From assembly GCF_058153355.1 (NCBI RefSeq), contig NZ_CM177019.1: a DNA stretch of 64,000 nt, one strand, 5' to 3'. The notes under the pieces are model-generated. The model saw only the letters and a program-made list of their open reading frames with translations, did no database searches and was not told the DNA's origin. Below are positions 59,115 to 63,917 of the stretch, in pieces (the stretch's first letter is position 1; each line of letters starts with the position of its first letter). The position numbers and the translations under genes are program-made.

Positions 59115-61712
59115 TTAAACCGCAGTCTGGAAAATCACCCCATCCGCTTTTTCGGTGTACTGAGAAAGCTGGTTGAAGTTCAGATAACGGTAAGTATCAA
59201 CGGCTGTTTTATCTACCTGCGCCACGTAGGTCTGGTACTCTTCCGGCGTCGGCAGTTTGCCAATCAGCGCCGCAACAGCAGCCAGTTCCGCAGAAGCCAG
59301 GAAGACGTTCGCGCCAGTCCCCAGACGGTTCGGGAAGTTACGGGTAGAGGTGGAAACCACCGTCGCACCGTCTGCTACACGCGCCTGGTTACCCATACAC
59401 AGGGAACAGCCAGGGATCTCGATACGCGCACCACTCTTACCGAAGACGCTATAGTAGCCTTCTTCGGTCAACTGTGCGGCGTCCATACGCGTTGGCGGAG
59501 CCACCCACAGACGGGTCGGCAGCTGACCTTTATGCGCATCCAGCAGTTTACCGGCGGCACGGAAGTGACCGATGTTGGTCATGCAAGAACCGATAAACAC
59601 TTCGTCGATCTTCTCGCCCTGTACCGCAGACAACGGACGTGCGTCGTCCGGGTCGTTCGGTGCACAGAGGATTGGCTCTTTGATATCAGCCAGATCGATG
59701 TCGATTACTGCTGCGTATTCTGCATCAGCATCGGCTTCCAGCAGCTCAGGATTCGCCAACCATTTTTCCATACCCTGAATACGACGTTCCAGGGTACGAC
59801 GATCGCCATAACCTTCCGCAATCATCCACTTCAGCAGGACGATGTTAGAGTTCAGGTATTCAATGATCGGCTCTTTGTTCAGCTTGATGGTACAACCGGC
59901 AGCAGAACGCTCGGCGGACGCATCGGTCAGCTCAAAGGCCTGCTCAACTTTCAGATCCGGCAGACCTTCAATTTCCAGAATGCGACCAGAGAAGATGTTT
60001 TTCTTGCCTTTCTTCTCAACGGTCAGCAGACCTTGTTTGATCGCATACAGCGGAATGGCGTGTACCAGATCGCGCAGGGTGATGCCCGGCTGCATTTTGC
60101 CTTTGAAGCGAACCAGAACGGATTCCGGCATATCCAGCGGCATTACGCCTGTTGCAGCTGCAAATGCCACCAGACCAGAGCCCGCCGGGAAAGAGATACC
60201 GATCGGGAAACGGGTATGGGAGTCACCGCCAGTACCGACGGTATCCGGCAGCAGCATACGGTTCAGCCAGGAGTGGATTACGCCATCACCCGGACGCAGC
60301 GACACACCGCCACGGTTCATGATGAAGTCCGGCAGCGTGTGGTGCGTGTTCACGTCAACTGGTTTCGGATACGCCGCGGTGTGGCAGAAAGACTGCATCA
60401 CCAGATCAGCCGAGAAGCCCAGGCACGCCAGGTCTTTCAGTTCATCACGGGTCATCGGGCCGGTGGTGTCCTGAGAACCGACAGAGGTCATTTTCGGTTC
60501 GCAGTACGCACCCGGACGAATGCCTTTCACGCCGCAGGCACGACCGACCATTTTCTGCGCCAGCGAGAAGCCGCGATCGCTCTCAGCGACATCTTTCGCC
60601 TGACGGAACACATCGCTCTGCGGCAGGCCGAGTGCTTCACGCGCTTTTGTGGTCAGGCCACGCCCGATAATCAGCGGAATACGACCGCCAGCACGCACTT
60701 CATCAATCAGCACGTCGGTTTTCAGTTCGAAGGTTGCCAGCAGTTCGCCGGTTTCGTGGTTACGCACTTCACCTTTGTACGGGTAAACGTCAATCACGTC
60801 GCCCATGTTCAGGTTAGAGACGTCGACTTCGATTGGCAATGCACCCGCGTCTTCCATCGTGTTAAAGAAGATTGGTGCAATTTTACCACCGAGGCACAAA
60901 CCACCGCCGCGTTTGTTCGGTACATGAGGAATATCTTCACCCATAAACCACAGCACGGAGTTAGTCGCAGATTTACGCGAGGAACCGGTACCCACAACGT
61001 CACCCACATAGGCCAGCGGGAAACCTTTCTGTTGCAGAGCTTCGATTTGCTTGATCGGACCAACAACACCCGGCTGGTCTGGCTCAATACCTTCACGCGC
61101 GTTTTTCAGCATCGCCAACGCGTGCAGTGGGATATCCGGGCGTGACCACGCATCCGGTGCCGGAGAAAGGTCATCGGTGTTGGTTTCGCCAGTTACTTTG
61201 AAGACGGTAACGGTCAGTTTTTCAGCCAGCGCCGGGCGATTCAGGAACCATTCGGCATCTGCCCAGGACTGCATTACCTGCTTCGCATATTCGTTGCCTG
61301 CTTTGGCTTTCTCTTCTACGTCATAGAAGTTATCGAACATCAACAGCGTGTGGGACAGTGCTTTGGCAGCAATCGGTGCCAGTTTGGCATCGTCCAGCGC
61401 GTCGATCAGCGGATGAATGTTGTAACCACCCTGCATAGTGCCCAGCAGTTCGATAGCTTTTTCCGGAGTCAGCAGCGGGGATTTAGCTTCGCCTTTGGCG
61501 ACAGCAGCCAGGAAGCCTGCTTTTACATAGGCGGCTTCATCGACGCCAGGGGGAACACGGTTGGTTAACAGATCTAACAGGAATTCTTCTTCGCCCGCGG
61601 GCGGGTTTTTCAGCAGCTCTACAAGTGCGGCCATTTGGTTTGCATCCAGGGGTTTGGGCGCAATCCCCTCAGCGGCACGCTCAGCTACGTGCTTACGGTA
61701 TTCTTCTAGCAC
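59115..61712 (-). CDS. acnB: aconitate hydratase B / 2-methylisocitrate dehydratase
   Basis: ORF track frame 59115..61865; native start is GTG (complement of 61710-61712) giving 865 aa [46 protein letters not shown]..., ends VIFQTAV. Confidence 0.96.
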
Positions 61713-62066
61713 GACGGTTCTCCTCGCTCTCATTGTCATAGTGCGGCAGGCGATTCTCTTCACGCTCCTGTGAGACAGCAGTTTGTAGGGTAAATGCCCA
61801 GTACCGCAACGGGCAGAATAGCAGGATTTTGACGATGTGTTAATCTGTTTACAAAAAAGCAACATAAAAAAGTGGCTGAATCGTTAAGGATAGTCTAGAG
61901 ATTGTTTCCCTCCGTAAAAACCTCGTTAATTCGCATGGTGATAATCACCTTTCTCAACAAAACCCAAGATTAGTCAAAATTTAAACTACCGCCTCTTTAT
62001 ACTCGGATTCACAGCACCTGCGGGTGGCAGTTCGCCGACCATTGCGATTTCCTTGAGATCCGAATT

Positions 62067-63917
62067 ATGAAAATGACTTTGCCGTTTAAACCCCATGTGC
62101 TGGCACTAATTTGCAGTGCCGGGCTTTGTGCCGCCTCTGCCGGGCTATATATAAAAAGCCGCACACATGAAGCGCCTGTGGAACCGCAATCGACACAACT
62201 GGCTGCGCCTGACATCACCGCAGTTACGCTTCCTGCAACGGTTTCCGCACCGCCCGTAACGCCCGCCGTCGTTAAAACCGCATTCAGCACTGCGCAAATA
62301 GATCAATGGGTTGCACCTGTCGCGCTGTACCCCGACTCTCTGCTTTCACAAGTGTTAATGGCATCAACCTATCCGACAAACGTTGCGCAAGCAGTGCAAT
62401 GGTCGCACGATAATCCACTTAAACAAGGCAATGCTACTATTCAGGCGGTATCTGACCAGCCGTGGGACGCCAGCGTCAAATCGCTGGTGGCTTTTCCGCA
62501 ATTGATGGCGTTAATGGGCGAAAACCCGCAGTGGGTGCAAAATCTTGGCGACGCATTTCTGGCGCAACCACAGGACGTAATGGACTCAGTACAGCGTTTA
62601 CGACAACTGGCGCAACAAACGGGGTCGCTGAAGTCATCAACCGAACAAAAGGTCATCACGACAACGAAAAAAGTCGTACCGGCAAATCAGCCCGCTAGCG
62701 CCTCCGCAATACAATCAAATCCCATTTCTACGTCCAGCCCCGTCGTCGCAGGACCTGCACCGACCGTAATAACCATCGAACCCGCCAATCCGGATATGGT
62801 TTATATTCCCAACTACAACCCGACCGTGGTTTACGGGAACTGGGCCAATACTGCGTATCCGCCAGTTTATCTGCCGCCGCCAGCCGGAGAACCGTTTGTT
62901 GACAGCTTTGTGCGCGGATTCGGCTACAGCATGGGCGTTGCTACTACATACGCACTATTCAGCAGCATCGACTGGGATGACGACGATCATGACCATCATC
63001 ATGACGATGATGATTATCATCACCACGATGGCGGTCATCGTGACGGTAATGGCTGGCAACACAACGGCGACAACATCAATATCAACGTCAACAATTTCAA
63101 CCGTATCACCGGTGAGCATCTTACTGATAAGAATATGGCATGGCGGCACAATCCAAACTACCGTAATGGTGTGCCCTATCATGATCAGGATATGGCAAAG
63201 CGGTTTCACCAAACCGATGTCAACGGCGGCATGAGCGCCACGCAGTTACCTGCTCCAACACGCGACAGCCAGCGTCAGGCGGCAGCAAGTCAGTTTCAGC
63301 AACGAACACACGCCACACCCGTCATTACGCGAGATACCCAACGTCAGGCAGCGGCACAGCGGTTTAATGAAGCTGAACACTATGGGAGCTATGACGACTT
63401 CCGCGACTTCAGCCGTCGCCAACCACTGACCCAGCAACAAAAGGACGCCGCTCGTCAGCGTTATCAGTCGGCCTCTCCTGAGCAGCGCCAGGCAGTCCGC
63501 GAGAGAATGCAGACTAACCCGCAGAACCAGCAGAGAAGAGAAGCGGCACGTGAGCGTATTCAGTCAGCCTCGCCTGAGCAGCGCCAGGCGGTTCGCGAGA
63601 AAATGCAGACTAACCCACAGAACCAGCAGCGAAGAGAGGCAGCGCGTGAGCGTATTCAATCTGCCTCGCCTGAGCAGCGCCAGGTGTTTAGGGAAAAAGT
63701 ACAGCAGCACCCACTGAACCAACAGCAACGTGATAACGCCCGCCAGCGTATACAATCGGCATCACCTGAACAACGTCAGGTTTTTCGGGAGAAAGTTCAG
63801 GAGAGCCGCCCACAACGTCTAAACGACAGTAACCATACTGCCAGGCTGAATAACGAGCAACGGTCAGCAGTACGCGAACGTCTCTCTGAGCACGGAGCAA
63901 GGCGACTGGAAAGGTAA
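62067..63917 (+). CDS. yacH: DUF3300 family protein YacH with C-terminal 32-aa tandem repeats
   Basis: 616-aa ORF with signal peptide MKMTLPFKPHVLALICSAGLCAASA, Asp/His-rich tract and repeated ARERIQSASPEQRQAVRE units; position between acnB and lpd. Confidence 0.85.
   Translation: MKMTLPFKPHVLALICSAGLCAASAGLYIKSRTHEAPVEPQSTQLAAPDITAVTLPATVSAPPVTPAVVKTAFSTAQIDQWVAPVALYPDSLLSQVLMASTYPTNVAQAVQWSHDNPLKQGNATIQAVSDQPWDASVKSLVAFPQLMALMGENPQWVQNLGDAFLAQPQDVMDSVQRLRQLAQQTGSLKSSTEQKVITTTKKVVPANQPASASAIQSNPISTSSPVVAGPAPTVITIEPANPDMVYIPNYNPTVVYGNWANTAYPPVYLPPPAGEPFVDSFVRGFGYSMGVATTYALFSSIDWDDDDHDHHHDDDDYHHHDGGHRDGNGWQHNGDNININVNNFNRITGEHLTDKNMAWRHNPNYRNGVPYHDQDMAKRFHQTDVNGGMSATQLPAPTRDSQRQAAASQFQQRTHATPVITRDTQRQAAAQRFNEAEHYGSYDDFRDFSRRQPLTQQQKDAARQRYQSASPEQRQAVRERMQTNPQNQQRREAARERIQSASPEQRQAVREKMQTNPQNQQRREAARERIQSASPEQRQVFREKVQQHPLNQQQRDNARQRIQSASPEQRQVFREKVQESRPQRLNDSNHTARLNNEQRSAVRERLSEHGARRLER
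63450..63815 (+). repeat. 96-bp in-frame tandem repeat (about 3.8 copies) within yacH
   Basis: Units starting 63450, 63546, 63642, 63738; each encodes ~32 aa AR(Q/E)R(Y/I)QSASPEQRQ(AV/VF)RE(R/K)(M/V)Q... Confidence 0.85.

Follow-up and report, generated by a model that had tools for sequence, protein, structure and literature searches.

Low-complexity stretches that combine histidine with acidic residues are found in SlyD, HypB, UreE, Hpn and RcnA, where they serve as binding sites of modest affinity for Ni2+ or Zn2+ and change rapidly in length during evolution; they are located in cytoplasmic tails or in the loops of membrane transporters, and the respective genes belong to operons of clear metal function. 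The closest characterised counterpart of the element analyzed here is the acidic, His-rich loop of ZnuA, which binds Zn2+ via His and Asp/Glu residues to form secondary sites and differs in length from one species to another; the roles proposed for this loop are scavenging, sensing and ZinT docking, and its exact role is debated (PMC9175090). Here we analyze an Asp/His-rich tract in the product of the yacH gene, which is encoded in a 64,000-nucleotide stretch of contig NZ_CM177019.1 (NCBI RefSeq assembly GCF_058153355.1; hereafter, the window). YacH is an uncharacterised E. coli protein of the DUF3300 family for which the published hints are to envelope stress and sensitivity to cationic peptides (PMC9600279). 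We tentatively interpret the tract as a putative flexible, pH-titratable metal-binding loop in the periplasm, a reading to which we would assign a probability of roughly 45%. The relevant parts of the gene are listed below; pLDDT is the predicted local distance difference test score of the AlphaFold models.

62067..63917, plus strand: yacH coding sequence for a DUF3300 protein (open reading frame (ORF), PF11737 match, E. coli annotation and synteny with K-12)
62976..63044, plus strand: dense Asp/His core, D304-D326, DDDDHDHHHDDDDYHHHDGGHRD (from the sequence; pLDDT falls from 69 to 42)
62976..63074, plus strand: whole expanded loop, residues 304-336 (33 residues), lying between W303 and the INI strand (usually 4 residues in the family)
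62913..62975, plus strand: Gly-rich segment FGYSMGVATTYALFSSIDW, residues 283-303, ending in W303, the predicted first arm of a hairpin (conservation; AlphaFold strands 285-287 and 299-301, pLDDT 67-82)
63072..63101, plus strand: Asn-rich motif NININVNNFN, residues 336-345, the predicted second arm of the hairpin (family consensus DVNINVNxYN; AlphaFold strand 337-340, pLDDT 84-93)

The preliminary description of this locus, which was made from the nucleotide sequence alone, pointed to a dense run of Asp and His in yacH, and the quoted peptide is indeed present. The tract, residues 303-330 (WDDDDHDHHHDDDDYHHHDGGHRDGNGW), is encoded at 62973-63056, from the first base of the W303 codon (62973) to the last base of the W330 codon (63056), and contains 8 of the 21 His residues and 11 of the 36 Asp residues of YacH. 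At the densest point, 17 of 19 residues are Asp or His, far above the maximum of 10 that was reached in 20,000 shuffles of YacH, and in a six-frame scan of the 64 kb, every 19-residue window with at least 14 Asp and His residues falls in the yacH tract. The range originally given for the run, 62974-63045, covers the dense core but is one base out of frame and stops about 11 nucleotides short at the 3' end.

To place the tract in the context of the family, 1.84 billion cluster representatives were searched exhaustively and without a profile, which yielded 9,723 DUF3300 homologs at E-values up to 0.001; 115 of these homologs were aligned with 26 orthologs from named genomes. The tryptophan that opens the tract, W303, is kept in at least 90% of the 142 aligned sequences. 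In the usual form of the family, this Trp is followed by four residues, G-R/H-G-D/N, and then by the Asn-rich motif VNINVNxYN (W-GRGD-VNINVN); exactly four residues separate Trp from VNINVN in 54 of the 101 family representatives in which the spacing is measurable, compared to 17-38 residues in the aligned Enterobacterales sequences. The AlphaFold2 model of a short-loop homolog (P0153) contains strands 256-259 and 264-268 around the four-residue turn, with a pLDDT of about 93. In the AlphaFold model of the window YacH, the pLDDT is 67-93 for the flanking strands and the segment after the tract, 42-69 for the tract itself, and below 50 for residues 318-332. The turn of the short-loop homolog, together with the low pLDDT of the tract between confidently modelled flanks, suggests that the tract is a beta-hairpin turn that was expanded into a disordered loop. 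The disorder is modelled, being read from low prediction confidence, and the two flanking strands probably pair with each other, judging from the secondary-structure strings. No relatives were found in the PDB, either by sequence or by fold. The possibility that residues 283-303 form a membrane helix was considered as well, the Pfam entry for DUF3300 describing its members as likely membrane proteins, and was rejected given the Kyte-Doolittle 19-residue mean of 0.78 and the beta strands that AlphaFold places there.

The loop is a lineage-specific insertion of Enterobacterales at a tight turn. A scan of one genome per species, in which one of the patterns was DHDHHHDD and the others came from conserved regions, returned 27 loci, and in every locus among these that was assigned to Enterobacteriaceae by record title or sequence affinity (in Escherichia, Salmonella, Atlantibacter, Dryocola, Buttiauxella, Raoultella, Kluyvera, Yokenella, Enterobacter and Citrobacter), a tract of 17-34 residues follows an invariant SIDW; a Bordetella homolog has GRGS in place of the tract. 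The tract is also present in proteins of Rahnella and Scandinavium. A search seeded with Salmonella YacH added 105 Enterobacteriaceae cluster representatives, including those from Klebsiella, Citrobacter, Pseudocitrobacter and Superficieibacter, all of which have tracts of 12-40 residues. Thus, conservation in homologs, by which the preliminary description proposed that the tract be judged, has two sides: most of the DUF3300 members have the four-residue turn, but every Enterobacterales ortholog examined carries the tract, with its composition kept. In addition, a second, unrelated, metagenomic DUF3300 clade (P0171, P0225, P0234, P0212, P0221, P0213, P0196 and P0228) has expanded the same turn, with Gly/Tyr/His/Asp-rich sequences such as AHHEVYDHHDGHHDGHGGYGD and DDDDDDVHVYNNGGGGGG; in a rough neighbour-joining tree, these expansions form a separate clade, and the Asp/His-rich loops fall mainly in one Enterobacterales clade. 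Given that two clades expanded the same turn, this turn appears to be a recurrent insertion site.

What is conserved in the loop is its composition rather than its sequence, codons or length. The 21 distinct ortholog tracts, 567 residues altogether, consist largely of Asp (182), His (138), Gly (95), Asn (73) and Tyr (45), with no Glu and no Lys, and the sole aliphatic residue is one Ala; in the set of 105 clusters, the tracts contain 706 Asp, 603 His and 4 Glu. The codons of the 21 tracts are 77% NAY and 17% GGN, and synonymous codons are mixed (GAT:GAC, 100:82; CAT:CAC, 79:59). Replacement of Asp by Glu or of His by Gln takes a single third-position change, and such replacements are essentially absent despite the turnover of third positions between genera; substitutions by Tyr, Asn and Gly do persist. 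In the ordinary linkers of YacH (residues 30-70 and 201-240), it is Pro, Ala, Ser and Thr that are abundant instead. The near absence of Glu and Gln against a background of mixed synonymous codons, along with the different make-up of the linkers, points to selection that would act on Asp and His themselves, beyond the requirement for a flexible spacer.

The suggestion that the tract might vary in length through gat/gac/cat codon repeats is borne out in E. coli, where it spans 22-43 residues between Trp and DN at the extremes, with all changes in frame. Among the E. coli cluster representatives nearest to the window YacH, the spacer between Trp and DNIN is 25-35 residues, and the variants differ by His runs of 3-7, an additional HD, three or four consecutive Asp residues, and Asp to Asn changes. 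Sixty of 5,416 complete E. coli genomes, sampled at even spacing and probed with 252 nucleotides of K-12, showed the K-12 length in about 80%, a 6-nucleotide gain in about 10% and a 39-nucleotide loss in about 5% (two cases, H98 and H99, are confirmed, and H100 is assigned by the same partial-match pattern), along with single cases of +3, -6 and +24 nucleotides. The +6 allele is a duplication of CAT GAC, the +24 allele, in strain PBP8, is a tandem duplication of DHDHHHHD, and the -39 allele lacks DDDDYHHHDGGH plus one His; all indels in the fetched E. coli variants lie within the tract and are in frame. The window tract contains (CAT)3 at 62994-63002 and (GAT)3 at 63006-63014, and it is at these (CAT)/(GAT) runs that E. 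coli alleles gain or lose codons. Both runs are part of a repeat in the tract.

62977..63029, plus strand: cryptic tandem repeat, imperfect, within the DNA of the tract (Tandem Repeats Finder: period 12, 2.9 copies; period 21, 2.4 copies)

Thus, the loop changes in length by in-frame triplet slippage and by short tandem duplication or deletion of GAY/CAY codons, and the locus is moderately polymorphic rather than hypervariable. In the Salmonella cluster P0311, an in-frame deletion has shortened the tract to 12 residues. An 8-bp deletion, GATCATCA, has been reported at codon 284 (gac gat cat cac) of Salmonella yacH (STM0157); it frameshifts the gene in several strains of S. Typhimurium relative to LT2, and yacH is reported as a pseudogene in UK-1, 14028s, SL1344 and D23580 (PMC10048834, PMC3391293). 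In the Salmonella proteins P0306 and P0307, the tract extends from residue 281/282 to residue 310/311, so the frameshift at codon 284 falls inside the tract. Two ORFs that overlap the tract in the window, 62896-63234 in the +1 frame and 62955-63212 on the minus strand, translate into Ile/Met/Thr-rich hydrophobic strings; we regard them as by-products of the GAT/CAT periodicity rather than as genes. The database proteins P0122 and P0155 are frameshifted translations that run into the Ile/Met/Thr-rich +1 frame at the tract.

The cellular side on which the loop resides was assessed from the N-terminal part of the protein.

62067..62153, plus strand: N-terminal export signal or signal anchor, residues 1-29, with the hydrophobic core at 11-29 (Kyte-Doolittle)

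Residues 11-29 are the only segment of YacH with a Kyte-Doolittle 19-residue mean above 1.6 (2.04); they are preceded by K2 and K8 and include A-S-A at residues 23-25, a possible cleavage site. An equivalent hydrophobic N-terminus is present in 121 of 138 family members, and signal peptides have been reported for DUF3300 proteins (PMC4653623). The signal peptide noticed at the outset is thus supported indirectly, as an export-type N-terminus, and its cleavage is possible. Because the sole segment of membrane grade is N-terminal and DUF3300 proteins carry signal peptides, the tract would be placed on the exported side.

The composition of the tract led the preliminary description to propose divalent-metal binding, which appears chemically plausible and is strengthened by the likeness to the ZnuA loop. 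The disordered stretch contains about 12 Asp and 9 His, and the calculated net charge of the tract is about -9.5 at pH 7 and about -1.5 at pH 5. YacH and the loop of E. coli K-12 ZnuA have in common the heptapeptide DDDDHDH and an HHHGD/HHHDG element. The codons for DDDDHDH differ between the two genes at 7 of 21 nucleotides, all in third positions, which argues for convergence rather than copying. Under the metal-binding reading, the Enterobacterales loop, with its about 12-43 residues that are almost wholly Asp, His, Gly, Asn and Tyr, would act in the periplasm as a flexible multidentate cation site, with the charge shifting with pH. The likeliest ligands would be Zn2+, Cu2+ or Ni2+, with the imidazoles of His and the carboxylates of Asp as the coordinating groups, much as the acidic His-rich loop of ZnuA supplies its secondary zinc sites. 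Ion binding would be expected to order the loop and could change the hairpin, the self-association of YacH or its contact with a partner; YacH might buffer a bound ion, sense it or hand it over.

Several observations weigh against this reading. The periplasmic location of the loop is itself predicted from sequence, most of the DUF3300 family functions with a four-residue turn, and slippage homogenisation, i.e. concerted evolution, may be partly responsible for so pure a composition. The E. coli alleles that lack 13 residues and the 12-residue Salmonella allele persist, and several S. Typhimurium strains are reported to carry yacH as a pseudogene (PMC3391293); the short alleles and the pseudogenes suggest that the loop, and even YacH itself, is dispensable in some settings. 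No paper in the library searched links yacH to metals, one of the searches having been poorly specified and having returned generic metal papers; the regulation described for yacH involves envelope stress (CpxR, Rob, ampicillin and cationic peptides), not metals (PMC9600279, PMC7537768, PMC8865558). Zur, Fur and NikR-like boxes are absent from the 354-bp acnB-yacH intergenic region, and metal-responsive regulation of yacH was therefore rejected; the best upstream matches have 10 of 23 (Zur), 7 of 19 (Fur) and 5 of 12 (NikR) mismatches to the working consensus sequences used. The best CpxR-type match upstream of yacH, with 2 mismatches, is uninformative given that such matches occur 61 times in the window. 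The same intergenic region contains a perfect 13-bp palindrome, GGTGATAATCACC, at 61937-61949, about 120 bp upstream of the yacH start. An exact copy of the palindrome occurs in K-12, in a second E. coli, in E. whittamii and at three further Escherichia loci, whereas E. albertii and the other genera do not have it in this form. The palindrome does not match the consensus boxes tried; it may be a regulator site.

Explanations of the tract that do not involve metal have to be weighed alongside. The tract could be a tolerated, ligand-free low-complexity expansion: the turn accepts insertions, GAY/CAY slippage renews Asp and His, and the loop need only stay soluble and unstructured. Such an expansion would readily account for a loop that is four residues long in most of the DUF3300 family, 22-43 residues in E. 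coli and down to 12 in Salmonella, for the cryptic tandem repeat in the DNA, for the enlargement of the same turn with a different, Gly/Tyr/His-rich sequence in the second clade, and for the pseudogenes reported in several S. Typhimurium strains (PMC3391293); moreover, the predominant NAY codons (77%) interconvert by one first-position change, and GGN codons account for another 17%. Nevertheless, we consider this explanation unlikely, if far from negligible, because Glu, Lys and nearly all aliphatic residues are missing from 567 residues despite saturated synonymous sites between genera, and because the generic linkers of YacH draw on Pro, Ala, Ser and Thr instead. Furthermore, all the way from Rahnella to Escherichia, Trp is immediately followed by an Asp run and then by His runs, and point-mutated Tyr, Asn and Gly codons persist, so that slippage is not simply erasing variants. 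A second alternative is that the loop, strongly anionic at neutral pH and almost uncharged at pH 5, might be a pH-sensitive charge switch, or a site for polycations instead of transition metals; it could bind cationic antimicrobial peptides, protamine or hard cations of the envelope (Mg2+, Ca2+), with a conformation that changes with acidity. The calculated difference in charge between pH 7 and pH 5 fits this possibility, and so does the preference for Asp over Glu, which is typical of Ca2+-type sites. Deletion of yacH improves survival in protamine, and yacH mRNA is lowered by protamine in a partly CpxR-dependent manner (PMC9600279); yacH is also among the genes with changed expression after treatment with a cathelicidin peptide (PMC6737244). 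However, the protamine phenotype could also stem from the rest of YacH, outside the tract, and the high, conserved His content (24%) is unneeded for a purely anionic site. This alternative, which overlaps with metal binding and is not exclusive of it, we regard as doubtful.

The tract could also be a contingency repeat that toggles yacH by slippage, i.e. a device for phase variation, as suggested by the short codon repeats and by the 8-bp deletion at codon 284, inside the tract, that frameshifts S. Typhimurium yacH (PMC10048834, PMC3391293). This is highly improbable, and the reading is largely refuted: the repeat units are triplets, homopolymer and dinucleotide runs are absent from the tract, all indels found in E. 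coli are in frame, and a single length prevails in about 80% of the spread sample of 60 genomes; the frameshift that is common to UK-1, 14028s, D23580 and SL1344 suggests inheritance over reversible switching. The metal-binding reading can be extended to a selected, slippage-tunable metal/proton sensor that Enterobacterales would have grafted onto a Cpx/Rob-regulated periplasmic protein, with ZnuA-like capture of Zn2+/Cu2+ or docking into ZinT-like partners, and with the alleles (22-43 residues) setting the capacity. We mention this extension as an improbable speculation; if it were true, the sensor module would link the metal status of the periplasm to envelope stress and sensitivity to cationic peptides.

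The identity of the gene itself is supported by several lines of evidence. The ORF at 62067-63917 on the plus strand, as given in the ORF listing, encodes 616 residues plus a stop, and its product matches Pfam PF11737 (DUF3300) at residues 75-332 with 261.3 bits (E=9e-78; the gathering cut-off is 25 bits), covering positions 2-227 of the 227 of the model; an NCBIfam search with the same protein gave no match. By Megablast, yacH is present in 5,425 of 5,426 complete E. coli genomes, at features annotated as yacH. The divergent acnB gene (59115-61712, minus strand) lies upstream, and lpd, with its 3' end after 63987, is convergent downstream, so that the acnB/yacH/lpd order in the window is the E. 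coli K-12 layout. The Pfam match, the RefSeq annotation of the E. coli counterparts and the K-12 gene order uphold the name yacH that the preliminary description had used. The nucleotide identity of yacH to typical E. coli copies is about 92%, with the best at 95.8%, compared to the best of 98.8% for acnB, which suggests that yacH evolves faster than the adjacent gene. An origin of the window in an Escherichia species other than E. coli, considered in view of the yacH identity, was rejected because of the high identity of acnB. In comparison with K-12, YacH diverges most in the inter-domain linker, rich in Pro, Ala, Ser and Thr, at residues 201-240 (62667-62786), where 21 of 40 residues are identical to K-12 YacH, against 92.5% overall. 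In E. coli E69 (L006, 3001-5583), the yacH match spans about 730 nucleotides beyond the gene length and the frame ends after approximately residue 380 (a 392-residue ORF), which suggests that this copy is broken by an insertion, perhaps an insertion sequence (IS) element, downstream of the tract.

Outside the enteric bacteria, the genomic context of the DUF3300 genes is different. In all three non-enteric loci checked, a DUF2950 gene is located immediately 3' of the DUF3300 gene (L027, 4437-5339; L034, 1891-2859; L035, 1967-2689), and the co-localisation of the two is reported to be universal in rhizobia (PMC4653623); yacH has no DUF2950 neighbour in the window or in E. coli K-12. The DUF2950 partner is a trait of the wider DUF3300 family and is not a requirement for YacH orthology.

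The preliminary description also placed the tract upstream of tandem repeats, and this arrangement was recovered.

63453..63804, plus strand: C-terminal 96-bp (32-residue) tandem repeat, 3.7 copies of SASPEQRQ... units, outside the tract (Tandem Repeats Finder)

The repeat units, SASPEQRQ(A/V)(V/F)RE..., are modelled by AlphaFold as helical hairpins. A likeness to the LTXXQ repeats of CpxP, Spy and ZraP was considered and found unsupported, with Pfam giving only a sub-threshold DUF3106 match (E 0.0067). The overall length of yacH differs among E. coli, with matched spans of about 1,644-1,854 nucleotides and proteins of 584-662 residues, which probably reflects the copy number of the C-terminal repeat.

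The DUF3300 literature that we found does not discuss the Asp/His tract. If the loop binds metal or senses pH, it would provide a biochemical handle on YacH and on the large DUF3300 family; if it has no ligand, it would be an ordinary low-complexity insertion. The locus is a natural example of a tight hairpin turn grown into a disordered loop of selected composition, and it offers natural length alleles for testing, as well as the site of the S. Typhimurium frameshift.

Compared with the rest of the DUF3300 family, the window YacH retains both flanks of the tract, the invariant Trp on one side and the VNINVN-type motif on the other; typical members have the four-residue turn and a DUF2950 neighbour, whereas YacH has the Asp/His loop and the SPEQRQ-type C-terminal repeats, and stands alone between acnB and lpd. 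The tract joins the acidic, His-rich flexible loops, a kind that is already known, but differs from the stretches of SlyD, HypB, UreE, Hpn and RcnA in that it is a hairpin loop within a protein that is probably exported and is uncharacterised. The resemblance to the ZnuA loop, which is likewise disordered and rich in His and acidic residues, would extend to the compartment, ZnuA being periplasmic and YacH being predicted to be so. The context of the two loops is different: YacH does not have the ZnuA-type (cluster A-I) fold, with Pfam identifying DUF3300 only, and has neither an adjacent high-affinity (primary, three-His) site, nor znuBC-type partner genes, nor a Zur box. The ZnuA loop also contains Glu, Lys, Ser and Ala, which the YacH tract excludes.

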